Virus record (IMG/VR): IMGVR_UViG_2541047952_000005
Location: 1 to 10,972 of that record
Length of the DNA stretch: 10,972 bases
Source: a virus
Lineage: Duplodnaviria; Heunggongvirae; Uroviricota; Caudoviricetes
Reading direction: 5' to 3' (one strand)
Shown: piece by piece, positions 1 through 10,972 of the stretch
Layout of the letters: every line of letters starts with the position of its first letter
Position numbering within the stretch: the stretch's first letter is position 1
Notes under the pieces: generated by a model
Seen by the model: the letters and a program-made list of their open reading frames with translations, nothing else
The model's database searches: none
Told to the model about the DNA's origin: nothing
Made by a program: the position numbers and the translations under genes

Positions 1-834
1 ATGTCATCTTCCATCAAACAACAGATTAGAGATCGCAGCGAGTACATTGGTTTTATCGAAAAATGTTTTGCAAATGCGCATCAATGCTACGTTGTCCATT
101 ATTCATGTGAATCTTTTTATGATGCTGTGGGCGGTAAATCCACAAGGATCACCTCTATTGCTGTCAGAAATTTAGGCAGTGGGCAAACAGATCATTGGGC
201 TCTTAATAGATCCGCAGAATTATTAGGTCTTGATGTTTCAGATGAAAAAAATCTCGATATCCTTGAGCATCATCTATTAGATAACTACTTTACATTCCTG
301 AAAAGATACGCACAATGCACATTTCTGCATTGGAACATGCGAGATAACAATTACGGATTTCAGGCCTTACAGCATAGATTTTCAGTCCTAGGTGGCGAGC
401 CCTTTATACTTACTGATGACAGAAAACTCGATTTAGCGAGAGCTGCCGTTTCTATATATGGACGAAGCTATATTGGGCATACCGCCAAAAGTGGCCGTGC
501 AGGTAGAATGTTAGCTCTTGTTGAAAAAAATGGTATCGCTGATAAAGATGTCTTAGCCGGCGCTGAGGAAGCCGAGGCATATGTCAAAGGTAAGTATAGA
601 GAGCTAGAAATGTCTACATTACGAAAGGTCGACATACTCTGTAATATTGCTGAGCGGATTCATGATCGTACTCTCAAAACTAACAATAAATGGTTTTGGC
701 CAAGAAGCTGGCATCCATATTGGTTAACGATGAGGCTCAAAGAACACCCATTAGTGACTGGATTAATAGTTTTAGGGATTTTCTTAGGTGTAATTACCAA
801 AGGTCTAGATCTATATGCTTGGTGGCAGCAGTAA
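1..834 (+). CDS. hypothetical protein, 277 aa, with one predicted C-terminal transmembrane helix; function unknown
   Basis: ORF open from position 1 (ATG at 1-3; the true start could lie upstream of the window) to TAA at 832-834. C-terminal hydrophobic stretch LVTGLIVLGIFLGVITKGL suggests a membrane anchor. No family recognised by eye. Confidence 0.5.
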   Translation: MSSSIKQQIRDRSEYIGFIEKCFANAHQCYVVHYSCESFYDAVGGKSTRITSIAVRNLGSGQTDHWALNRSAELLGLDVSDEKNLDILEHHLLDNYFTFLKRYAQCTFLHWNMRDNNYGFQALQHRFSVLGGEPFILTDDRKLDLARAAVSIYGRSYIGHTAKSGRAGRMLALVEKNGIADKDVLAGAEEAEAYVKGKYRELEMSTLRKVDILCNIAERIHDRTLKTNNKWFWPRSWHPYWLTMRLKEHPLVTGLIVLGIFLGVITKGLDLYAWWQQ

Positions 835-1078
835 AATGGGGTGTCAGGTCTTTATCGGGACACTGATACGGGGAAAGTTACAATACTGAGGCTGGTTCAC
901 GCTCAGAGCGTCAAAATTGTCCGTCACAGACTCGTCGCATCTGCACTTAATCCATATGACACGGATTGGACAGATTATATCCGATCCCGAACCACGCGTC
1001 TGACTGCACCTGCCGCATCATTTCACAGTGGTGTTTGATAAGGCTTGAGCCGTGTGAGCTGGAAACTCTCACGCACGG

Positions 1079-1104
1079 TGAATCGCCACGGATAATCTAG
1101 ACAC
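1079..1104. repeat. IS terminal inverted repeat (end distal to orfA)
   Basis: TGAATCGCCACGG... matches the reverse complement of the other terminus at 2282-2307. Confidence 0.8.
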
Positions 1105-2005
1105 TTCCGAGCCGTTGATAATACTGGTTTTCATATTCTGTCGGTGACATCTGATCGCTGGAACCATGCCGACGCTTACTGTTATAAAACATTTCGATGT
1201 AATCAAAAATATCGCTGCGGGCTTCTTCCCGCGTTCCGTAGATCTTTTTCTTTATCCGTTCGCGTTTCAACAACTGGAAAAAGCTTTCTGCAACCGCATT
1301 ATCATGGCAGTTACCGCGACGGCTCATGCTGCCCTCCAGGCCGTGTGATTTCAGGAACGACTGCCACTCATGGCTTGTGTACTGACTGCCCTGATCCGAA
1401 TGAACCAGCACCTGTTTTTGGGGATTACGGCGCCATACAGCCATCAGCAGTGCGTTCAGGACAATGTCCTTTGTCATCCGGGATTGCATGGACCAGCCGA
1501 TAATTTTGCGTGAGAACAGATCAACAACCACGGCAAGATACAGCCAGCCTTCGTGGGTCCTGATGTAGGTTATGTCCGTTACCCAACGCTTATCCGGAGC
1601 ATCCGGATTGAACTGTCGCTGGAGCCTGTTGGGCGACACGATACTGGCCTCGCCTTTACGTGCCCGCGGGCTCCGGTATCCGACCTGAGCCTTTATCCCG
1701 ACACGTTTCATCAGTCGCCAGACTCTGTTCACTCCGCACTGTTGCCCGCTGTCCCGCAGATCCAGATGGATTTTGCGATAACCATAGACGCATCCCGATT
1801 CCAGCCAGAACTGTTTAATCTGCCCTGTCAGCCTCAGGTCTGCCTGATGGCGTTGTGAATGCGGCTGCTGAAGCCAGGCGTAAAAACCACTGGGATGAAC
1901 ATCCAGCACCCGACAGAGCAGGCGAACAGGCCAGCAACAGGTGTTGTCACGGATAAAGGCGTACCTCAGTCGGACAGCTTTGCGAAGTACGCCGCGGCTT
2001 TTTTT
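1097..2005 (-). CDS. IS3-family transposase OrfB (DDE catalytic domain), expressed as an OrfAB fusion by programmed -1 frameshift
   Basis: DDE motifs in the translation: WVTDITYI, VLVHSDQGSQYTS, NAVAESFF. The orfB frame has no ATG of its own and stays open upstream through the minus-strand heptamer A AAA AAA G (plus-strand T-run 1999-2005) near the end of orfA. The track's 1097..1909 start is an internal GTG. Confidence 0.85.
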   Translation of the reverse strand, partial: KKSRGVLRKAVRLRYAFIRDNTCCWPVRLLCRVLDVHPSGFYAWLQQPHSQRHQADLRLTGQIKQFWLESGCVYGYRKIHLDLRDSGQQCGVNRVWRLMKRVGIKAQVGYRSPRARKGEASIVSPNRLQRQFNPDAPDKRWVTDITYIRTHEGWLYLAVVVDLFSRKIIGWSMQSRMTKDIVLNALLMAVWRRNPQKQVLVHSDQGSQYTSHEWQSFLKSHGLEGSMSRRGNCHDNAVAESFFQLLKRERIKKKIYGTREEARSDIFDYIEMFYNSKRRHGSSDQMSPTEYENQYYQRLGSV

Positions 2006-2244
2006 AATATGTCCCGTTCGTCGGTAACCCGCTTCAGCTCTTTCTGGAGACGGCGGATCTCGGCCTGAGCATCTGACTGTTCTTTATTAGCGGAAGAATC
2101 CGGACCGTACTTCTTTATCCAGGCGTAAAGGCTGTGGGTGGTGATATCGAGACGTGTTGCAACGCTGGCAACAGAATAACCGCGATCAACAACCTGTTTG
2201 ACTGCTTCAATTTTAAACTCTTCGGGATAACGCTTACCGCTCAT
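1966..2244 (-). CDS. IS3-family transposase OrfA (helix-turn-helix DNA-binding subunit)
   Basis: Track ORF 1966..2250 begins at a GTG; an ATG at 2244-2242 preceded by GAGAGGTG is the more likely start (MSGKRYPEEFKIEAVKQVVDRGYSVASVATRLDITTHSLYAWIKKY...). Typical OrfA with HTH and a C-terminal leucine-zipper-like region ending just past the slippery site. Confidence 0.85.
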   Translation of the reverse strand: MSGKRYPEEFKIEAVKQVVDRGYSVASVATRLDITTHSLYAWIKKYGPDSSANKEQSDAQAEIRRLQKELKRVTDERDILKKAAAYFAKLSD

Positions 2245-2281
2245 GGGCACCTCTCTTTAAGCCATCTTAAATGACTCTGAG

Positions 2282-2307
2282 GTGTCTGTTAAACCCGTGG
2301 CGATTCA
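2282..2307. repeat. IS terminal inverted repeat (end proximal to orfA)
   Basis: ...CCGTGGCGATTCA; its reverse complement matches 1079-1091 exactly and 1092-1104 partially. Confidence 0.8.
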
Positions 2308-2361
2308 CGGTTCTTAGAGGGGGCGTTGAAGGTAACTTCGGTGCCCTACTCGACAAGACCG

Positions 2362-2708
2362 AAGATAGCAAAAAAACAACCCTACTTCATTCACCGAACT
2401 GATGGGTAGCCAATATTCATGGCGGCAATCGGCAGCGCCCCTTCGAACGTAGTGACGAGGCCGAAGGTTTTTTAATAGTGACGTCTGCGGCCGATGAAGG
2501 CTTGGTTGATATACACGACCGACAGCCACTTGTATTGTCACCGGAGGCAGCCCGGGAATGGGATGCGCCAAGACGCCGAGGCAAGGAAGCAGAAGCGATT
2601 ACCGACTACGGTGCCGTGCAAGCTGACAAGTTTATCTGGCATGCAGTTACGCGAGCGATGGGTAATGCGAAAAATCAAGGTGAATATCTTATTGTTTCAA
2701 TTGAATAA
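2362..2708 (+). pseudogene. SRAP / YedK-like (SOS-response-associated peptidase) gene remnant: 5'-truncated, one in-frame TAG, one frameshift
   Basis: Frame 1 from about 2362 reads ...KKQPYFIHRTDG*PIFMAAIGS with TAG at 2407-2409. After the C-run near 2438-2441 the similarity continues in frame 0: PFERSDEAEGFLIVTSAADEGLVDIHDRQPLVLSPEAAREW... to TAA at 2706-2708. This resembles my recollection of the C-terminal half of E. coli YedK, including the His-containing HDR motif. The N-terminal half with the catalytic Cys2 is absent. From memory, not searched. Confidence 0.55.
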
Positions 2709-2733
2709 TAATGTTTTTACCTCAAATTAGCAT

Positions 2734-2739
2734 TATACT
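2734..2739 (+). promoter_or_regulatory. possible -10 element (TATACT) for the AT-rich ORF at 2786
   Basis: TATACT lies 47 nt upstream of the ATG in an AT-rich leader; no good -35 at 17-bp spacing. AGGA at 2771-2774 is a plausible ribosome-binding site. Weak call, since AT-rich DNA gives many chance matches. Confidence 0.25.
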
Positions 2740-2785
2740 ATTTCATGCTTTATTTACACCTCTTTAAATTAGGATAACAATTATA

Positions 2786-4534
2786 ATGGAAAACTCTAAT
2801 AGCAATTTGATTGTAAAAATAGTTCATCTTCTACAATCCGAAAGAGATGGACTTATTTTTATTGATGGAAAATGGGGAACAGGTAAAACTTTTTTTATTA
2901 AAAATGTATTTCCTCGTTTTTATGATCTTAATGTGTTTTATTATATTTCATTACTAGGCGTTAAGTCTCTTGCAGATTTCAAAGCAAAGATTATTGACTG
3001 CTACTATCTTCAAGATATAGACACTCTTAAGTCTGGGTTAGATACTATTTCTGGTTTGGGTAGTGTAAGCAGTGGTTCTCCCGCTAGTGCCAATGTGCTT
3101 AATGGTGTGTTCAGTTCCATTGGTTCAAGTGTAAGAGAGAACATACTCTCCAAACTCAGTGGCATATTTATATTAGATGACATTGAGCGATTAAGCACTC
3201 CCTCACTGGCCAATGAAATACTAACTTATTGTCATTCGTTATATTCAACCTCAAAAATCTCTAGTTTGGATTTTATTGTTATATCTAATACATCTGCCGA
3301 ATCCCACCTGTCATTAGAACATAAAGAAAAAATTATTTCTGATTCACTTCATTACAACCCAAACCCTCGCGACATATTAGATATGAGAATAATTGAAGAA
3401 AAACTACAGTACTTCCCCACTGAAGACAAAATGATTTTCGAAGAAATAATATCATACCATAACATAGTTAACATAAGAATTTTAATGAGGTGTTTAAATA
3501 CTGCACTTCCATTATATTTACACGCAGAAAACCACCCTGAACTAGAGTGGAAAATCGCCTCTAAAACCATACTAAGCTCAATTTTGTCATATTTTATCTT
3601 GTTATTTATCCATAACAAATCCATGGACGAACTGATCATTGACAGCATCCAGCATATCCCACCCCAAAATTCCAGCAGCGATGAAAATCCACATGAACCG
3701 AGACTTTTGTCTACATTACACAATTATAAAATTAATATTCACCTTAAAAATTACTACAGTGGTCATGTTTCTCTTTATGATATATTGGACGATGTTTTTT
3801 ATGTGCCAACACCTTTAAGTACAATTGATATTGCAGTTTCAACTCGACCAGAACTACAGGAGACAGATGAAAAAGAATTTTTCCCCACGATTATTGGTTT
3901 AATTTCTAGAACAATACCATGTGATTTGCACCAATGGCTTAGGGCGGTTCAGAACTATGAATATTTGACTTATCATAAATATCTTCCAAAATCATCATTA
4001 CTAACATTGCAGTTCATGAGTTCTAAATCACTCGAATTTAGTGACGAGGACATTATTACTTACTTTGAATTTCATAACAACAATCCAATCAGTAGTTGGA
4101 CTAGTGGCTTTGATGATGGGAAACTTATATTTTCAATATTATCAGGCCGTCATAATAATATTGAAAAGAGAAAAAACTTAAAGACAATTAAGGAAATTAT
4201 TGAAACTGATGGTTGGGCTTTATTTGATGTTAACTTATTACTCAAATTAGATCCCATGGGAAACTATAAAACGCTAGAAGTACTTGGCGCACCATTTTTG
4301 ACCAAGTGCATTTTAAAAGAATGGAGCATTAAAGATATAGAGCAATTCAACGCTTTTTTAAGAAGTAATTATAGAATTAGTAACATATCTCAGTTTGCCA
4401 CAAATGAAAAGCAGCGCCTTATATACCTCAATCAAAAACTTGACATTTATTTCATAGGTAAGCAAGAAAGTTTTAAATATGGCGCGATATATGATTTAAA
4501 CAATACAGTAAGACACGCAATTTCTTGCCTATAA
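2786..4534 (+). CDS. KAP-family-like P-loop NTPase, 582 aa, AT-rich, horizontally acquired; candidate phage-exclusion/defence protein
   Basis: ATG at 2786 with AGGA upstream; TAA at 4532-4534. Walker A GKWGTGKT (aa 28-35) has the G-x-W-G-x-G-K-[ST] form typical of KAP NTPases; Walker B-like GIFILDDIERL about 100 aa later. The C-terminal roughly 430 aa are unrecognised and rich in N/I/K/S/Y. Composition visibly more AT-rich than all neighbours. Confidence 0.6.
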   Translation: MENSNSNLIVKIVHLLQSERDGLIFIDGKWGTGKTFFIKNVFPRFYDLNVFYYISLLGVKSLADFKAKIIDCYYLQDIDTLKSGLDTISGLGSVSSGSPASANVLNGVFSSIGSSVRENILSKLSGIFILDDIERLSTPSLANEILTYCHSLYSTSKISSLDFIVISNTSAESHLSLEHKEKIISDSLHYNPNPRDILDMRIIEEKLQYFPTEDKMIFEEIISYHNIVNIRILMRCLNTALPLYLHAENHPELEWKIASKTILSSILSYFILLFIHNKSMDELIIDSIQHIPPQNSSSDENPHEPRLLSTLHNYKINIHLKNYYSGHVSLYDILDDVFYVPTPLSTIDIAVSTRPELQETDEKEFFPTIIGLISRTIPCDLHQWLRAVQNYEYLTYHKYLPKSSLLTLQFMSSKSLEFSDEDIITYFEFHNNNPISSWTSGFDDGKLIFSILSGRHNNIEKRKNLKTIKEIIETDGWALFDVNLLLKLDPMGNYKTLEVLGAPFLTKCILKEWSIKDIEQFNAFLRSNYRISNISQFATNEKQRLIYLNQKLDIYFIGKQESFKYGAIYDLNNTVRHAISCL

Positions 4535-4541
4535 ATTGGCA

Positions 4542-4580
4542 TACTAAGTCTCAGCCGAATTGTATAACTGAGACTTAGTA
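4542..4580. terminator. stem-loop between convergent genes (13-bp stem, 13-nt loop); putative bidirectional terminator
   Basis: TACTAAGTCTCAG (4542-4554), loop CCGAATTGTATAA, then CTGAGACTTAGTA (4568-4580), a perfect inverted repeat. Lies between the end of the AT-rich ORF (4534) and the end of umuC (4658). No clean U-tract, so efficiency is uncertain. Confidence 0.45.
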
Positions 4581-4657
4581 ATCAAAAATAAGAACATTTG
4601 ATTTATCGTTTCTAATAAACTCATCCACCGTTTTCCGAAGAATCTGTCACCGGAAAA

Positions 4658-5926
4658 TCACCTGACAACGGGTAGATCAGAGAATCGGGTGGTGTAACGT
4701 GGAGAAAGTATTTCCCGTTTCATCTGCCACTGCTGCTGGATACCCTGTCCTGCAAAATACAGCGTCCCCCTCCCGCCTTTGGCATTGAGGTGATCCAGCA
4801 CTTCCATCAGTTTCTCACTGCCCGGGCGCGGCGCGTTATCATCGAACAAGTTGAGCTGAGCCACGCCCTGACTGAAGAAATCACCCAACATCACCCCGGC
4901 TTTCTGATACCGATATCCGTCTTGCCATATGGCGTCCAGACAGCGGATGGCTGCACTGATGATATCCCGACTGTCCTGCGTAGGCGTCAGAAGCTTCACG
5001 GAGGCATTATTGCCATAATAGGGCTCGTTCAGTGCGAACGGGCTGGTCTTCACAAACGCCGAGATAAAACGGCAATACTGGTGCTCGCCACGCAGTTTCT
5101 CTGCCGCCCGCGAGGCATAGCTGCAGATCGCCTGGCGCATCTCTTCATACTCCGTGATACGACCGCTAAAAGAGCGGGAACAGATAATTTCCTGTTTCAC
5201 TGGCGCGAATTCTTCCAGTGCCAGGCAGGGTTCTCCGCGTAACTCACGCACCGTTCGCTCCAGCACGACATTAAAATGTTTACGGATAAAACGGATGTCC
5301 GTATCAGCGAGTTGCAGTACGGTCTTGATCCCCATCGCCTCCAGTTTTTTCGAAATACGCCGACCGATGCCCCAGACTTCATCAACCGGCAGCGCGGCCA
5401 TCAGTTTGCGCTGGCGATCGACACTGGACAGGTCTACCACCCCGCCCGTCTGCCGCTGCCATTGTTTGGCCGCGTGGTTGGCCAGCTTGGCCAGCGTCTT
5501 GGTCTGGGCAATGCCAACACCCACTGTCAGATGCGTTCGCTGCAGAACAGTAGCACGGATTTCACGGCCAAAATCAGTCAGATCACGACAGTTACGTACA
5601 CCAGTGAGGTCACAAAATGCCTCGTCTATCGAGTAAATTTCACAGCGCGGCGACATTTCTTCCAGCGTGGTCATCACCCGGTTAGACATATCCGCATACA
5701 GCTCATAGTTGCTGCTGAAGCACACCACCCCATGGCGCCGGAAAAAGTCCTTCTGCCTGAAGTACGGCTCACCCATTTTGATACCCAGTTTCTTTGCCTC
5801 TGTGCTGCGGGCAATAACACAACCGTCATTGTTGGAAAGCACCACAACCGGCCTACCTTTGAGATCCGGGCGAAATACAGTTTCACAGGAGGCATAGAAC
5901 GAGTTCACATCACACAACGCGTACAT
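4658..5926 (-). CDS. umuC: UmuC, error-prone translesion DNA polymerase V catalytic subunit (Y-family)
   Basis: Near-full-length similarity to E. coli UmuC as recalled ([22 protein letters not shown]...[11 protein letters not shown]...[19 protein letters not shown]...[11 protein letters not shown]...). The track start at 5932 is a TTG; ATG at 5926-5924 matches the UmuC N-terminus and lies 2 nt after the umuD stop. Confidence 0.93.
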
Positions 5927-5928
5927 GA

Positions 5929-6348
5929 TCAACCCGTCGATTTCACGATGAACGTCACCACACCAAAAACATCGAGCGTTTCTTCGCTCCCGATGATGAT
6001 AGGCGACCAGGCGCGGTTTTCAGGGTTAAGCTGGACAGTTGGCCATAACTGTAGGCGCTTAACGGTAAATTCCCCGTCCACCGCAGCAATAACGATATCG
6101 CCGTGCTCTGCCTTGCGTGAACTGTCCACTACCAGTAAATCGCCTTCGCCGATCCCGGCATCAATCATCGAGTCACCAGATGCCTTAACGAAGTACGTGG
6201 CGCTGGGGTGTTGTATCAGTAGCTCGTTAAGATCGATACGCTGTTCAACGTAGTCCTGAGCAGGGCTTGGGAAACCACAGGGTACAAGATCGCCATAGAG
6301 TGGAAGCGGCTGCACTGCACGCAACCCGGAGGGAGTGAAAAACTGCAT
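5929..6348 (-). CDS. umuD: UmuD, LexA-like S24 self-cleaving accessory subunit of Pol V
   Basis: Cleavage-site context VPCGFPSPA, active-site FVKASGDSM and TVKRL lysine region are all present, resembling E. coli UmuD. The track start at 6363 is a TTG; ATG at 6348 (MQFFTPSGL...) aligns with the UmuD N-terminus and has GGTGA 5 nt upstream. ATG at 6351 is an alternative. Confidence 0.93.
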
Positions 6349-6367
6349 CATAATCACCGTCAATTAA

Positions 6368-6387
6368 TACTGATATTATATACAGTA
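6368..6387. promoter_or_regulatory. LexA (SOS) box upstream of umuD
   Basis: TACTGATATTATATACAGTA, i.e. CTG-N10-CAG with an AT-rich centre, close to the consensus TACTGTATATATATACAGTA; 20 bp upstream of the umuD start. Confidence 0.8.
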
Positions 6388-6455
6388 GTTTTTATTTAAA
6401 CGGAGATCAATGGCATTAGCCACCATCAGTCATCATCGTCGCATAACTCAATGAT

Positions 6456-7007
6456 TTACCTGGTTGCCGGAAATTTTTTATATAGCGTCGATATCCCAAC
6501 ATCGTAAATTAATGCCACACGCTGTCGTGATTCACCTGCTGCAACCAACCTTCCTGCCTGCGCCCACTGTTCATCAGTTAGCTTTGATCGACGCCCACCT
6601 ATTCGCCCTTCTTCACGAGCCGCAGCCAATCCCGCCCTGGTACGTTCGACTATCAGCTCCCTTTCCATTTCGGCAAGTGCGCCCATGACATGGAAGAAAA
6701 AGCGTCCCATTGGTGAAGACGTATCTATGCTGTCGGTCAGGCTGCGAAAGTTAATACCCTTTTCCCGAAGCTCCTCCACCAAAACGACAAGATGCCGCAT
6801 GCTGCGACCGAGTCGATCCAGTTTCCAGACCACCAGCGTATCGCCTTCAGACAGAGTCCTGAGTACTTTCTTCAACCCCGGTCGGTCAGACGTTCTGCCG
6901 CTGATCTTATCCTCGAATATCAGTTCACATCCTGCGCACTCCAGTGCGTTTCGTTGCAATGCGGTGTTCTGGTCATTTGTTGACACACGTACATAACCGA
7001 TGAGCAT
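6456..7007 (-). CDS. serine-recombinase DNA invertase (Pin/Gin/Hin/Cin family)
   Basis: MLIGYVRVSTNDQNT... (catalytic Ser in VRVST), ...DTLVVWKLDRLGRS..., ...SPMGRFFFHVMGALAEMERELI..., C-terminal HTH ...ALIYDVGISTLYKK; close to E. coli e14 PinE as recalled. ATG at 7007 with AGGGG upstream. Lies immediately outside the invertible segment. Confidence 0.93.
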   Translation of the reverse strand: MLIGYVRVSTNDQNTALQRNALECAGCELIFEDKISGRTSDRPGLKKVLRTLSEGDTLVVWKLDRLGRSMRHLVVLVEELREKGINFRSLTDSIDTSSPMGRFFFHVMGALAEMERELIVERTRAGLAAAREEGRIGGRRSKLTDEQWAQAGRLVAAGESRQRVALIYDVGISTLYKKFPATR

Positions 7008-7073
7008 GAGAAATACCCCTGTAAAAAGCCGGGATCATGCCATCTGAGCGGAATAACTGCATTTTCTAAAAGG

Positions 7074-7094
7074 TTGGTTTGGGAGAAGCCAGAT
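7074..7094. repeat. inverted repeat / recombination crossover site, invertase-proximal
   Basis: TTGGTTTGGGAGAAGCCAGAT is the exact reverse complement of 8510-8530 (21/21). Embedded in a 26-bp imperfectly palindromic site 7062-7087, TTTTCTAAAAGG TT GGTTTGGGAGAA, resembling gix/hix-type sites. Confidence 0.8.
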
Positions 7095-7417
7095 ATGTCA
7101 TTCAGCGAGGAGCTAATGTCAATGGAGCATGGATACGCTGGTCAGATGGTGCAATAGAAGTATTTGGAACTGGTGGTTCCAATGATAATGGGCTGGCTAA
7201 AGTCGTTTATCCAATTGCACTACCTAAGCTTTCACGTTTTATCAGCATAGCGGAAAGAATAAGAACAGATTACGAGGCCACACCTAATAACGTTCACGTT
7301 TCAATGATCGTGGATGACCAGGTCAGTAATACAGGTTTTTATGTCCGCTGCCAGATGTACGACGGAAGACCATCAACAAGTGCTTTTTCCTGGAGAGTTT
7401 ATTGTGCGCCTGTTTAA
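7076..7417 (+). CDS. silent alternative tail-fibre C-terminal cassette (about 113 codons), no start of its own
   Basis: Reading from the crossover core: GLGEARYVIQRGANVNGAWIRWSDGAIEVFGTGG...RVYCAPV, TAA at 7415-7417. Its first codons (GLGEAR) duplicate, in inverted orientation, the fibre sequence at the other crossover site, so inversion would give an in-frame fibre of about 210 aa. The track's 7079 start is a TTG inside the repeat. Confidence 0.6.
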   Translation, partial: GLGEARYVIQRGANVNGAWIRWSDGAIEVFGTGGSNDNGLAKVVYPIALPKLSRFISIAERIRTDYEATPNNVHVSMIVDDQVSNTGFYVRCQMYDGRPSTSAFSWRVYCAPV

Positions 7418-7601
7418 TCCTGTTACTTTGACTGAAGTAATCCCCGGTCTTCATGACGTGACCGGGGCTGTGGAATTACCAGAAGATAACTGGTTTTTTA
7501 CTGCATCTGAAATCCCTGAAGGAATGGAAATATCTGTTAACGAGAAGGGCGAACCCATTCTGATTGAGATTAAACCATCTCAGGTGGAACTGGCCAGATA
7601 A
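7404..7601 (+). CDS. small ORF (65 aa) paired with the silent cassette; possible alternative fibre chaperone, unverified
   Basis: GTG at 7404 with GGAGAG 6 nt upstream; TAA at 7599-7601. Its position immediately after the silent cassette mirrors the tfa position after the active cassette. No recognisable Tfa motif. Confidence 0.35.
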   Translation: MRLFNPVTLTEVIPGLHDVTGAVELPEDNWFFTASEIPEGMEISVNEKGEPILIEIKPSQVELAR

Positions 7602-7836
7602 CCCCCGGCGCGGTGCTGGTATCTGCTTCCATCACCGCGTCGATATTACCAACATCATATTCAGTCATTTCCGGTTCCGGTGGTGCTATAAACTCTCCGT
7701 CAGAATAGAACCAACCGACGCCTGCATCTATATGATCAACATTTATAATTTCGCAATTAGAGAATAAATCACCCTCTCCATCCCAGATAATAATATTTTT
7801 CACCACGCCATGTTCAATCAGAGCAAAATTACTCAT
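7570..7836 (-). CDS. tail-fibre assembly protein (Tfa-like chaperone), 88 aa
   Basis: C-terminus ...EADTSTAPGVIWPVPPEMV resembles the conserved C-terminal motif of lambda-type Tfa proteins as recalled. Start ATG overlaps the fibre stop (TGATG). Shorter than typical Tfa, so possibly internally deleted. Confidence 0.65.
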   Translation of the reverse strand: MSNFALIEHGVVKNIIIWDGEGDLFSNCEIINVDHIDAGVGWFYSDGEFIAPPEPEMTEYDVGNIDAVMEADTSTAPGVIWPVPPEMV

Positions 7837-8819
7837 CAGGCATACTCCTCAACAATAACTATTCCCGGGGCACCGTCACCTCCCGATTGAGCCTCACTTC
7901 CAGCAGGTGCGCAGGCTCCGCCTCCGCCAGCACCAAAGCCCTCAGCTTTACCACCACCACGTCCTCTGAATGATGAAGAACTTGCACCACCTATACCGCC
8001 TGAACCTAATGGTGTATCCCCCCCGGTACCACCTGCTACAGCTTTAACAGAGATAACCATTGCTCCTGGTGTTTTTGCACTACAGCGAAATGCTCTTAGT
8101 ACAGTGCCGGACGATGTCGGACTGGCACCCCATGAAATACCCTGAATATATGATGTGTTTGCAGATGCTCCCCCCGCGCCACCGCCTGTACCACCAGGTG
8201 CAGTTATCATGGAACCGAAATAAGTTGTGCCACCTTCACTACCTGAATTTCTTCCGGCTCCCCCCCCTTTACCTGCAGCACCGATAATAACGTTGACTTC
8301 GAAATCATTATCAACCTCGAAAAATGCTTCAATAAATGCGCCGCTCAATCCAGCTCCGGCTGTTGCCTGCTGATTTTCTGTTGTTTCAGGAACCCCACCG
8401 CCGCCGCCGCCACCACCAGAGGCAATGACCCTTATCTTTTTTGTCCCTGGTGTTGGGATATATTTTCCAGAGCTTTTAAAAATATTCGTGTTTAACAAAC
8501 GACCAGAGAATCTGGCTTCTCCCAAACCAAGGTTTTCGAGAGCCGTTTTCACCGTGCCGTCCGATTTGATATCGCCAAACGGATTCTTGCGGCTTAACAG
8601 CAGCGCACGAAGCGCGGTAAGCAGCTGGTCATGCCGCCCCTTCTCCAGGCTGGCACCGGACGCCTCCACCACGCTACAAAGTTCTTCCTGCAACATATCA
8701 AAATAGTCATCATCCAGATCGGTGGCAGGTGTGCCGGTCTGGGGGTTACCACGGGTAAAACCGTTCTTACCCGCGCCGAACTTATCCTTCTGCGCGGTTT
8801 TCGTGTCTATGCGATGCAT
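7836..8819 (-). CDS. phage tail-fibre protein, 327 aa: conserved N-terminal about 97 aa plus glycine-rich C-terminal domain in the current orientation
   Basis: ATG at 8819-8817 with GGAG upstream. N-terminus [21 protein letters not shown]... is of the e14/Mu-like side-tail-fibre type. The C-terminal 230 aa lie inside the invertible segment and are Gly-rich (GGGGGGGG, GGTGGGAGG, GAGGGGA). Confidence 0.88.
8510..8530. repeat. inverted repeat / recombination crossover site inside the tail-fibre gene
   Basis: ATCTGGCTTCTCCCAAACCAA, partner of 7074-7094. The 26-bp site 8517-8542, TTCTCCCAAACC AA GGTTTTCGAGAG, has palindromic half-sites and lies at fibre codons about 94-102 (ENLGLGEA). Confidence 0.8.
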
Positions 8820-8822
8820 GGA

Positions 8823-9407
8823 TTACTCCGGATATTTAAAAATTACGTAGGTATGCGACGGGCAGAGTTTGTTAAGCACACATTCGACGACGGTGTCGCC
8901 CCAGATACGCAGTGCGGAATCACAGGGAGCACCACATGTCATCCAGGTGGTGTTGGTGGCGGATGGCATGTTGACCTGCCAGTAATACCGCCATTCCGGC
9001 GCATTCACCGCGTCAGTACAGGCCGATGAGCAGGTGAACGTGCTTTTGTCGTATCGCGTGATGGTGGCGTCTGGTCTGCCCAGGGCAGCAAGCTGTGCAA
9101 GGTAAAAATCCTCATTGATGCCGCCCGCCAGGTTAACCTTCGCATCCAGCCGTTGCTGACGCTGGCGAAGGGTCTGCGTCCCTGCGGGAATACATTCATC
9201 CGGCAGGCCGCACAGACGCTCCCAGCGATTTATCAGTTCAGTGGTGGTACGCGGATCCAGCTCCCGCATCAGGGCATCCGCACGCTGATGAACACGGGTT
9301 AATGACGGTGCCGCACCGGCAATCGCCGGATCGCTGGCTGACCATGCCGGACCGGGCGGCAACAGTGCCGATAACAGGCGGATGTAATCATCGTTTGTCA
9401 CGTCCAT
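8823..9407 (-). CDS. phage tail/baseplate protein (Mu gp48 / P2 gpI-like, DUF2313-type)
   Basis: 194 aa. Assigned by position between the baseplate-J-like gene and the tail fibre and by the N-terminal [15 protein letters not shown]-type motif. Overlaps the upstream gene by 10 nt. Confidence 0.7.
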
Positions 9408-10456
9408 GAAATCGTCCCCAGAACCGCCAGTTCATTTTTCGCAATGGAGATATTGTCTGCCGGTGCAAGCAACTGATGGCTGTATTCCCCGTTCGCACCG
9501 GAAATCGCTTCACTGATACGCGATACCTTCAGTTCTCCCTGCGGATAACCATCACGCAGCAGGAACGAACGCAACTCTGCGGTGATGGCAGCCCGTATTT
9601 CCGGTGTGTCCGGCGTCACGCGGATATGAAAATCCACCGTATGCGCCACCGGCCTGAACACATACAAATCAGAACCTGCCACCGGGGCCAGTGGCTCGAT
9701 GTGTTGTCGTACTGCCGTTTCCGTTGACTCTTCCGGAATGGGATTAATCAGGTCACTGCCGGCAATCATCACACCGACAGTTCCCGTTCCCATCCAGTGG
9801 CGGTATGTCCATGCGCGGGTAATGCCGGGCACTTCTTTAGCCCAGACGACATAGTCCCCGTCAGCCCCGCCCTGCGGCGTCCAGTAATACCGCTCAATGA
9901 CGCGGGCGCGCCACGTTTCCAGCTCTTCAGTATCAAATCCGCCTGTCAGAGTGTCAGCCACACCGGAAGACGGCAGACCATTCACCGGCGTGACCAGGAT
10001 TAATGCCGTACCGTCGTCAGCGTTACCGACCGCGCCTGCACTTGAGCAGGCGATCGGCACGCGCAGGACACCACCGGAGCTGGTTGCATCGGCAGTTGCC
10101 GTGTACTGAACCAGGTCATCGCGCTGAATAACACTCCCGGCAGTCACTTTCAGGCCATCGCTGACACCTTCCCAGCGCATATACCCGCTGGCAGCCGTGG
10201 CCCCCTTGCGCGGACACCGTTTCATCGCAGCATGTCGCGCCAGCCAGGACTCATCGCACAGGTCAGGAAGCATGTTCATTGCCAGATAATCGATGTAACC
10301 GTAAACCGTATGCAGCGCCGCCGCATACACCTTTGCCCGCACGTCTTCATCCATGCGCCGGAGCGTGTCGCTGACGTCCAGCCTGGCGAATAAATCGTTA
10401 CGGAGCATACTGATATTTTCTGCCAGCGTCGGGCGCTGAAATTCACTGTCCGCCAT
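9398..10456 (-). CDS. baseplate J-like protein (Mu gp47 / P2 gpJ family)
   Basis: 352 aa, GC-rich, translationally coupled to both neighbours. Assigned by size and conserved order (gp46-like, J-like, gp48-like, fibre, tfa, invertase). Confidence 0.75.
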
Positions 10457-10871
10457 GCGTTATCGCACTCCACAGATCATCAAAAGAAATCATTACCGGT
10501 CCGTCACGACGCCAGAGAGTGATACTGTTACCCAGTTCATTAATCCCGGTGCGGCGGATATCCAGATCAATACGGGACACCACGCCGTCATCAATCATCC
10601 ATTGCAGGCATTCGCGGATATACCCCCTTACCGTCAGCACCAGCTGATTGGTCAGTTTGCTGCGCTGAAGCAGCCACAGCCGGGAGCCGTAACGGTCATT
10701 CTGTACCGCAGGCCAGGTATCCCCCCACCATCCCATCGGGACGTCGGCGTTGTCATCAGGCTCCGCCCGCCGCCAGGTAAACAGGGAAATCACCACGGCG
10801 CGGGTCAGCGGATCCAGCGGTGCGCTGGCGCAGGTGCGTTTACCGTTCACCGTCAGCCACAGTTCCATCAT
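10443..10871 (-). CDS. baseplate protein (Mu gp46 / P2 gpW-like)
   Basis: 142 aa; start ATGATG at 10871 overlaps the upstream stop (ATGA); 14-nt overlap with the J-like gene. Assigned by synteny and size. Confidence 0.65.
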   Translation of the reverse strand: MMELWLTVNGKRTCASAPLDPLTRAVVISLFTWRRAEPDDNADVPMGWWGDTWPAVQNDRYGSRLWLLQRSKLTNQLVLTVRGYIRECLQWMIDDGVVSRIDLDIRRTGINELGNSITLWRRDGPVMISFDDLWSAITHGGQ

Positions 10872-10972
10872 GCCTCCATCGCTTTATCAGGTTTGTCGGT
10901 GTTACTGCCCTGACCGTTCTCTCTGTGACGATGCCCGTTATAGGCAAGCCGCATCGCTGACATGGTGGTGCC
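10868..10972 (-). CDS. 3' end of an upstream tail/baseplate gene (possibly baseplate assembly V / Mu gp45-like); partial, runs off the window
   Basis: Minus-strand frame open from the window edge, ending ...NTDKPDKAMEA with TGA at 10870-10868 overlapping the next start. Not in the ORF track because no start is in the window. Confidence 0.4.
   Translation of the reverse strand, partial: GTTMSAMRLAYNGHRHRENGQGSNTDKPDKAMEA

Follow-up and report, generated by a model that had tools for sequence, protein, structure and literature searches.

The stretch of DNA considered here, hereafter the window, comprises the 10,972 nucleotides (nt) of the IMG/VR virus record IMGVR_UViG_2541047952_000005 (Caudoviricetes; positions 1 to 10,972) and opens with an open reading frame (ORF) for 277 amino acids (aa), ORF277, which is the first gene of a prophage that has integrated into Escherichia coli at the transfer-messenger RNA (tmRNA) gene ssrA. 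ORF277 is a real gene in a large, widely conserved and uncharacterised family. As judged from a structure model, the fold of its product is clearly that of a DnaQ/PolB-type exonuclease domain plus a tail anchor, and the best explanation for the gene is that it is a single-gene accessory (moron-type) function of temperate phages, plasmids and genomic islands.

The ORF277 gene and its product

The features of ORF277 are as follows, in window coordinates.

1 to 834 (+): ORF277 coding sequence, stop codon included (ORF list, annotation in three E. coli genomes, homologous clusters)
79 to 666 (+): DnaQ/PolB-type 3'-5' exonuclease-like (RNase H-like) domain, residues ~27-222, predicted cytoplasmic
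97 to 117 (+): motif H33-Y-S35-C36-E37-S38-F39 at the end of strand beta1, putative Exo I 'DxE' position (from secondary-structure order)
328 to 360 (+): motif H110-W-N-M-R-D115-x-x-Y-G119-F120 after beta4, putative Exo II position (at least 95% conserved in 145 members)
424 to 441 (+): K142-L-D144-L-A-R147, strand beta5 and helix (K142 and D144 at least 95% conserved)
559 to 633 (+): helices with G187-x-x-E190-A191 and S205-T206-x-x-K209-x-D211, candidate Exo III equivalent (from the helix order of the AlphaFold2 model)
748 to 798 (+): C-terminal transmembrane (tail-anchor) helix, residues 250-266 (hydropathy, AlphaFold2 helix 250-276, family conservation)
799 to 831 (+): 11-residue C-terminal tail (TKGLDLYAWWQQ region), predicted periplasmic (sequence; predicted topology)

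ORF277 begins with an ATG at window position 1 and stops with a TAA at 832-834 on the + strand, its product of 277 aa ending in ...GLDLYAWWQQ. This product is WP_021574711.1, a "hypothetical protein" with the identical start annotated in all three of the complete E. coli genomes that carry it; the window edge is therefore the true start codon, and not a cut through a longer gene, as the preliminary description of the window had allowed for. Upstream of it, at a distance of 172 base pairs (bp), lies ssrA. A GAGG ribosome-binding site is found 8 nt 5' of the ATG in E. coli. A spurious ORF or a misplaced start is ruled out by the conserved N-terminus and by homology over the full length.

The GC content of ORF277 (0.40) is set against 0.50-0.54 for most other named features of the window and 0.326 for the KAP-like gene described below, and, of 5,426 complete E. 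coli genomes searched with Megablast, no more than three contain the first 1.1 kb of the window. The low GC, together with the place of ORF277 as first gene of a prophage at ssrA, upholds the earlier suspicion that it is accessory, mobile-element cargo.

A single hydrophobic segment is present in the protein, at residues 250-266 (LVTGLIVLGIFLGVIT; Kyte-Doolittle 19-mer mean 2.16), and it is rich in small residues (G253, G258 and G262). The topology first read from the letters alone, that is one hydrophobic helix followed by a short tail, is thereby borne out by hydropathy and by the 11 residues that follow. The tail is predicted to be periplasmic, because the protein has no N-terminal signal sequence and because R244 and K246 lie N-terminal to the helix.

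A large and uncharacterised protein family

Among 5.8 billion clustered proteins, 2,609 homologous clusters (90% identity) were found at E<=1e-3, and the best 120 of them are 246-372 aa long, 41-77% identical to ORF277 over the full length, and devoid of any Pfam domain or informative name. Along the same line, a profile search of 1.84 billion representatives at 50% identity gave 1,121 matches, 339 of them at <=1e-30; length is uniform in the family, most of the matches listed measuring 255-280 aa and some being shorter and apparently partial. A scan of one genome per species yielded 497 relatives, the best 80 of which span Gamma-, Beta- and Alphaproteobacteria, Desulfobacterota, Cyanobacteria and Bacillota, and also include Acidobacteriota, Chloroflexota, Bacteroidota and Planctomycetota. 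As for curated resources, PHROG 8766 (function unknown) matches ORF277 at 2e-54, Pfam and NCBIfam returned zero families at E<=1, sequence and profile searches of the PDB came back empty, and only one of 30 relatives matches DNA_pol_B_exo1, weakly (0.009).

About 40 positions are at least 95% conserved, across phyla, in a set of 145 non-redundant members, to which the conservation values in this text refer. They include H33-Y-S-C36, S38, R49, R56, Q62, H110-W-N-M-R-D115, G119-F120, R126, K142, D144, Y157, N177, G187, E190, S205-T206 and K209. The C-terminal hydrophobic segment lies above a strict hydropathy threshold in 135 of the 145 members, most of the others falling just below it; the sequence of the helix is variable across the family, and only its hydrophobicity is kept.

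Fold and candidate active site

The AlphaFold2 model of ORF277, built from a 30-sequence alignment, has a mean predicted local distance difference test (pLDDT) of 86.2 and a predicted template modelling score (pTM) of 0.79. It consists of an N-terminal helix, an alpha/beta domain with strands at residues 29-36, 50-57, 63-67, 107-110 and 142-144 and helices in between, and one long C-terminal helix (250-276), and it has an RNase H-like alpha/beta fold with the strand and helix order of DnaQ. Foldseek searches against the PDB and against the viral BFVD agree, the matches being RNase T, PolB, T7 polymerase, MAEL and YprB-like/DnaQ-like phage proteins. The preliminary description could place no motif in the protein and proposed a structure prediction; at the level of sequence the statement stands, no library giving a match of known function, but it is superseded at the level of the fold, because both Foldseek searches point to a DnaQ/PolB-type exonuclease, and the model, which is a confident one, combines an exonuclease-like domain with a C-terminal helix.

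The conserved motifs were mapped onto Exo I, II and III by the order of secondary structures and by statistically insignificant alignments, and the equivalences are therefore to be taken as candidates. At the putative Exo I position, H33, Y34, S35, C36, S38 and F39 are at least 95% conserved and E37 85-95%, with Q in some members. At the Exo II position, H-W-N-M-R-D115-x-x-Y-G119-F is set by secondary-structure mapping against the exonuclease H-N-x-x-F-D; in the non-significant hhalign alignments, which serve as a guide only, W-N aligns with 'GWNVVQFD' of Pol II and D115 with D103 of epsilon. The motif K142-L-D144-L-A-R147 seems to resemble the 'D-x-L-x-L-A-R' of DnaQ-like exonucleases, the sequence compared being 'VTDSLAVAR' of epsilon. 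In the candidate Exo III region, G187, E190, A191, S205, T206 and K209 are at least 95% conserved and D211 85-95%, and the epsilon alignment, not significant here either, is consistent only within one residue. The candidate DEDD positions, as so mapped, are S35-C36-E37 (Exo I), the invariant D115 or G119 (Exo II), and the invariant E190 or D211 (Exo III).

By secondary-structure order, the most conserved motifs fall on the segments that form the DEDD pocket, namely beta1 at its end, the stretch of loop and helix that follows beta4, beta5 together with the adjoining helix, and the helices further on. It is safe to state that the mapped pocket is under strong purifying selection and has a non-canonical chemistry; the domain may act as an unusual nuclease or as some other hydrolase, or may be a pseudo-enzyme that binds a ligand. 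H33, C36 and H110 could together make up a metal site.

The E. coli locus

The genes next to ORF277 in the window are the following.

1079 to 2307 (-): insertion sequence (IS) of the IS3 family, 1,229 bp (inverted repeats, annotation as IS3 family transposase)
2371 to 2708 (+): pseudogene of a SOS-response-associated peptidase (SRAP) (Pfam SRAP 1.7e-07, annotation)
2786 to 4534 (+): KAP-like P-loop NTPase, 582 aa (Pfam KAP_NTPase 8.6e-07, PADLOC PDC-S49 7.8e-14)
4658 to 6363 (-): umuC-umuD, a recurrent neighbour in Enterobacterales and Pseudomonas relatives (annotation)

The gene order is the same in all three E. coli genomes: smpB, ssrA, a gap of 172 bp, ORF277, the SRAP pseudogene, the KAP-like NTPase, umuC-umuD on the opposite strand, a pin-type invertase and tail-fibre genes, beyond which lie Mu-like baseplate genes in two of the three and a truncated remnant ending in an integrase in SZQ1. 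A strong intrinsic terminator, AAAAAGCCCGCACTTTGCGGGTTTTTTTTT, ends 13 nt 5' of the ORF277 ATG and 130 nt past ssrA (L001 14829-15000). The annotation agrees with the layout given earlier, in which ORF277 shares its strand with the KAP-like ORF and is separated from it by the IS and the SRAP remnant.

The IS3-family element has TG...CA ends, imperfect inverted repeats of 42 nt and a 3-bp target duplication, CGG (1076-1078 and 2308-2310). It is found in one of the three E. coli genomes only and, because the empty site is preserved in CP173996 and CP053731, its insertion is regarded as recent and strain-specific and not as part of the ORF277 feature. The 245-bp spacer between ORF277 and the IS occurs, like ORF277 itself, only in the three E. 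coli genomes, and a 65-aa ORF in this interval (841-1038, +) matches no Pfam family (best E 0.15). At the other end of the block, a pin/hin-type invertase (6456-7007, -) is followed up to 7836 by short ORFs, on either strand, for tail fibres and their assembly; the segment 6456-7836 differs among the three genomes, consistent with an invertible or exchangeable host-range cassette.

The KAP-like protein also matches PHROG 4740, and PDC-S49 is a candidate single-gene defence family of PADLOC. A functional link between it and ORF277, which the preliminary description had entertained as a speculation, finds no support, because the KAP neighbour is confined to the E. coli element: a KAP homologue lies within 8 kb of an ORF277 homologue in 4 of 149 loci, all of them copies of one E. 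coli element, and none is found near the homologue in the Klebsiella, Serratia, Yersinia and Pseudomonas relatives. In the equivalent island of Klebsiella, the KAP slot is occupied by a BLUF-EAL gene and another ORF. In view of this co-occurrence in a single element, and of the differing GC content (0.40 versus 0.33), a two-gene ORF277-KAP system is rejected, and the conclusion is that the two genes are independent cargo. The KAP-like gene looks like a separate defence-type cargo inserted between the SRAP remnant and umuC.

The SRAP gene is frameshifted and N-terminally truncated in E. coli and reduced to a 77-aa remnant in Klebsiella, while the Serratia prophage L151/L087 (L151 8958-9665) and L090 have an intact copy that follows the homologue at a distance of 133-186 bp, which suggests an ancestral cargo block of homologue, SRAP and umuCD that is decaying in E. 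coli. Upstream of umuD, at 6368-6387 on the - strand, there is a SOS box, TACTGTATATAATATCAGTA, of the form CTGT-N8-TCAG, one mismatch away from the core of the LexA consensus. A search for CTGT-N8-ACAG or GAAC-N4-GTTC boxes from -300 to +150 nt of the ORF in 137 loci gave none save one match at chance level. LexA control of ORF277 is rejected, there being no box upstream of it in E. coli or, that single match aside, in the 137 loci.

Genomic contexts of the relatives

The position next to an RNA gene is not peculiar to E. coli. In 9 of 60 genome loci (Raoultella, Klebsiella, three tmRNA loci of Pseudomonas, and, in other phyla, loci of tRNA-Leu, -Ala and -Arg), the homologue is preceded on its own strand by a tmRNA or tRNA gene whose end is ~60-650 bp away, a frequency which by rough estimate is well above chance for a randomly chosen gene; the homologue adjoins ssrA also in Klebsiella pneumoniae and Yersinia. 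In 42 of 57 viral contigs it lies no more than 4 kb from the contig end (no more than 1.2 kb in 18), and prophages of the Burkholderiaceae type end with it, in convergent orientation to the genes for lysis and tail. Plasmids gave 12 matches, half of them on conjugative plasmids, including pAW63 of B. thuringiensis.

A case in point of a different placement concerns 17 Streptococcus prophages (Javan and related), in which the homologue sits between genes for a cI-type repressor and cro-like/excisionase genes, reads towards the integrase, and is divergent from the cro-like gene 50 bp away. At the Javan loci L142 (2581-3807) and L143 (2861-4087), this divergent gene, 50 bp upstream, encodes a 63-aa helix-turn-helix (cro-like) protein. 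In 29 viral-contig loci (L108-L141) a small convergent ORF of ~80 aa runs ~50 nt into the 3' end of the homologue, and the same layout is seen in the Streptococcus prophages, where the homologue seems to lie within a second genetic-switch unit.

No neighbour is constant. The 106 ORFs immediately adjacent to the homologue in 55 diverse genome loci match 99 different Pfam families, none of which occurs more than twice; the family therefore behaves as a single-gene unit. On the same count, a conserved operon partner is rejected. Among the neighbours are defence genes, namely two each for the R subunit of type I restriction, AbiJ/Abi_C, Mrr-like and Stk2-like proteins, as well as PDC-S06, PDC-S19, a short pAgo with SIR2 partners and a ThsA of the Thoeris type; such matches are fewer among 75 control ORFs taken 5.5-8 kb away, being limited to a single type I S subunit, a single methylase, QatD and WYL. 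The relatives do keep company with mobile and defence genes in other genomes (prophage ends, lysogeny modules and conjugative plasmids on the one hand; neighbours matching the PADLOC models of pAgo, type I restriction, AbiJ, ThsA and PDC-S06 on the other), and for this reason the accessory nature proposed for ORF277 is sustained.

Two rare fusion proteins among the best profile matches have another module in place of the membrane helix. P0163 (815 aa, from one metagenomic contig) carries the family domain at residues 30-250, has no membrane helix, and ends in a CAP12/Pycsar-type TIR domain (PF10137, 9.3e-20), whereas in P0271 (587 aa, on five contigs that come from three or more samples) the family domain (16-221) is fused to an AAA_15/AAA_21 ATPase which normally stands alone (~360 aa) and which sources name "OLD family endonuclease" or "AbiEii toxin". 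Such partners, TIR and OLD/AbiEii-like ATPases, are typical of anti-phage proteins. A search for further TIR or ATPase fusions found none, so that the support lent by the fusions is thin. At L163 (8001-10654), the P0271 gene lies directly downstream of a dnaE-type gene for the Pol III alpha subunit and is followed by an overlapping 296-aa ORF without a Pfam match; stand-alone ATPase relatives of ~360 aa are very abundant, and P0271 may form with the 296-aa ORF a two-gene defence-type system of its own.

What ORF277 may do

A role in defence or exclusion, of whatever kind, is a serious possibility for ORF277, falling somewhat short of an even chance. Within it, the membrane-tethered nuclease version takes the larger part and is put forward tentatively; what is left of it falls to an abortive-infection version. 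The proposal proceeds from what was computed (gene, fold, topology, family size, contexts and the lack of a fixed partner) to nuclease activity, substrate, expression in lysogens and protection, for which the conditional is used throughout. The first ~225 residues, predicted to form an exonuclease-like domain, would stay in the cytoplasm, and the C-terminal tail-anchor helix would fix this domain to the inner membrane. There, the tethered domain would engage the free nucleic-acid ends entering from a superinfecting phage or a conjugative plasmid, and would degrade or block them, while the tether would keep it off the chromosome; the cell that hosts the element would thereby gain superinfection exclusion or defence. 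By placing the gene just 3' of the tRNA or tmRNA gene that it targets, the element could moreover have it switched on only after integration, via read-through from the strong promoter of the host RNA gene. Taken at its widest, the proposal is that of a widespread and previously unrecognised single-gene immunity family in which a tail-anchored, remodelled exonuclease domain would recognise or destroy invading DNA at its entry, with a TIR or ABC-ATPase wiring in rare relatives; this is a possibility to be held with as much reserve as the nuclease version itself.

Several points weigh against this proposal. The canonical DEDD tetrad is not recognisable in the family: the place of its first Asp looks to be taken by Ser35 or His33, and E37 is Gln in some members. 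No His or Tyr general base can be placed either, L185/A186 standing before E190 and T206 before D211, and the conserved histidines of the family lie elsewhere (H33, H110, H125 and H160); the domain may bind rather than cut. The hhalign comparisons with E. coli DnaQ (epsilon) and Pol II were all insignificant and give but a rough guide to the motifs, the defence models of PADLOC-DB v2 returned 0 families at E<=1, and literature searches found no publication on the ORF277 family. The enrichment of defence genes among the neighbours is modest (~11% versus 5%) and, being a count of models and not of proteins, only indicative. Lastly, no sigma-70-like promoter was seen between the ssrA terminator and the ORF277 ATG in E. 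coli; with a terminator ending 13 nt upstream and no such promoter visible, expression in lysogens can only be presumed, and it is possible that it comes from read-through of the terminator or depends on integration.

Rather unlikely, yet closest to the toxin/effector idea of the preliminary description, is an abortive-infection sensor-effector, in which a non-catalytic domain would sense phage nucleic acid or a nucleotide signal, and the activated C-terminal helices would oligomerise and permeabilise the inner membrane so that the infected cell dies. A small membrane-depolarising toxin, as first imagined, fits poorly with a protein in which ~220 of 277 residues make up a strongly conserved, enzyme-like domain with a predicted place in the cytoplasm; what survives of the idea is that the exchange of the membrane helix for a TIR effector domain in P0163 leaves the helix as a possible effector and an abortive-infection role possible, transmembrane and TIR modules being alternative effectors in Pycsar and CBASS. 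The non-canonical acidic residues would suit binding over cutting, the helix is rich in small residues (G253, G258, G262), and neighbours of the AbiJ, ThsA and pAgo type are in keeping with such a role; but the TIR fusion is a single protein from a single metagenomic contig, one transmembrane helix with an 11-residue tail would make a minimal effector, the helix is not conserved in sequence beyond its hydrophobicity, and the conservation of the pocket is more typical of an enzyme. That same conservation bears on a less probable explanation still, namely that the protein is a dead pseudo-exonuclease serving its own element as a membrane scaffold or regulator, for instance in prophage maintenance, in the control of induction, or in entry exclusion by protein-protein contact. 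Inactive EXO-like domains do occur, as in Maelstrom, Exuperantia and Pol alpha, and the unconserved Exo I Asp, the variable E37 and the position of a regulator in Streptococcus, divergent from a cro-like gene 50 bp away, are what it would lead one to expect. However, many of the ~40 positions conserved at 95% or more across phyla are Arg, Lys, His, Ser or Asp on the mapped pocket segments, which points to a small substrate or a chemistry that is itself conserved and less to a partner peculiar to one lineage, and the family is also found outside prophages, in defence islands and on plasmids.

Comparably improbable is that ORF277 is part of a mobile module for SOS or DNA-damage tolerance, together with SRAP, UmuD'2C, DinI or YolD-type proteins, with a role such as the processing of 3' ends in preparation for translesion synthesis or in its wake. 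That prophages can carry SRAP and error-prone polymerases is on record (PMC3765255). SRAP, umuDC or DinI recur beside the homologue in Enterobacterales, and about nine separate contexts adjoin SOS-related genes: the orders are homologue-SRAP-umuC-umuD in Serratia, homologue-umuC (4 bp apart)-umuD-SRAP in Pseudomonas, homologue-SRAP in L090, homologue-umuC in Raoultella (L004), homologue-umuD-like-DinI-like in K. spallanzanii, and homologue-86-aa ORF-DinI in Yersinia, to which the SRAP remnant and umuCD near the homologue in E. coli and Klebsiella and a YolD-like gene two genes away on the Bacillus plasmid pAW63 may be added. An exonuclease fold beside a Y-family polymerase deficient in proofreading is suggestive as well. 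UmuC lies 4-3,824 bp from the homologue in 11 loci, and SRAP, UmuD or UmuC adjoins it at 4-190 bp in several prophages of Enterobacterales and Pseudomonas, yet such adjacency is absent at most loci: of 149 loci, 11 have UmuC, 13 UmuD and 11 SRAP, these being for the most part the same loci, with repeat copies of the same elements among them. Since the SOS genes occupy the same attachment-site (att)-proximal cargo slot, adjacency may reflect position only. In addition, a protein anchored in the membrane does not readily fit a task at the replication fork, the SRAP gene of E. coli has decayed whereas ORF277 is intact, and the homologues at 137 loci have, one chance-level match aside, no LexA-type box, whereas umuD in the window has one.

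Comparison with known systems

As far as the literature searches show, the family, its tail-anchored architecture, the non-canonical pocket and the distribution are undescribed, the fold itself being well known. ORF277 shares its order of strands and helices with the DEDD superfamily (Pol III epsilon, RNase T, ExoI, TREX1, the proofreading domains of PolB and PolA, and YprB-like proteins), has conserved motifs at the Exo I, II and III positions as mapped above, and carries a 'K-x-D-L-A-R' like the 'D-x-L-x-L-A-R' of DEDDh enzymes. It differs from them in that its putative Exo I reads H-Y-S-C-E-S and not D-x-E, in the lack of a clear His/Tyr base, and in the addition of an N-terminal helix, extra C-terminal helices and the transmembrane tail anchor; the curated models (RNase_T, DNA_pol_B_exo1 and RNase_H_2, as well as NCBIfam) miss it at E<=1. 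The inactive EXO-like domains of MAEL, Exuperantia and Pol alpha, which are among the structural matches, likewise combine a DnaQ-like fold with non-canonical catalytic positions, but they are eukaryotic, soluble and found in unrelated contexts, unlike ORF277.

With the effectors of Pycsar and CBASS the likeness is limited to the one relative, a singleton fusion, that bears a CAP12/Pycsar-type TIR in the position of the membrane helix; no cyclase or other signal-generating partner is adjacent to the ORF277 homologues, and no cyclic-nucleotide-binding domain was detected. Similar in placement are Sie2009, Ltp and SieA/SieB, the superinfection-exclusion genes that prophages carry in lysogeny modules or att-proximal regions, whose products are mostly small membrane proteins or lipoproteins with no enzyme fold. 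ORF277 and its relatives share with these genes the position (att-proximal, at prophage ends, in the gap between repressor and early genes), the direction of transcription, which runs opposite to the lytic operons, and the membrane association, but most of ORF277 is a conserved domain of enzyme-like character, predicted to lie in the cytoplasm, and its family is also found outside prophages.

Should protection be true, ORF277 would be a compact system of one gene, with a fold so far not met with in a membrane-tethered defence module, in a family present in ~500 species genomes, in prophages of human and animal pathogens such as Streptococcus pyogenes, S. agalactiae, S. equi, Klebsiella and Yersinia, and on conjugative plasmids of Bacillus. 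If the link to SRAP and UmuDC were the true one instead, it would be an unknown accessory factor of mobile error-prone repair modules; either way, PHROG 8766, so far a "hypothetical protein", gains a fold, a topology and candidate catalytic residues.

To return to the tethered nuclease, the nearest parallel in concept, and in concept only, is SNIPE (PD-lambda-1), a membrane-bound nuclease that cleaves the DNA of a phage while it is being injected and is kept by its tether from cutting the DNA of its own cell (Saxton et al. 2026, PMC13190303). SNIPE consists of an N-terminal transmembrane helix, DUF4041 and a GIY-YIG nuclease (PMC13190303); no sequence relationship to it is detectable in ORF277, which has no Pfam match to DUF4041 or GIY-YIG and no PADLOC match. 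Both are single proteins of the accessory genome with one membrane helix and a cytoplasmic nuclease-type domain, a predicted one in ORF277, whose helix is C-terminal and whose fold is DnaQ-like, and the function demonstrated for SNIPE is inferred for ORF277. If it does protect the cell, ORF277 would provide a second and independent case, after SNIPE, of spatial discrimination between self and non-self.

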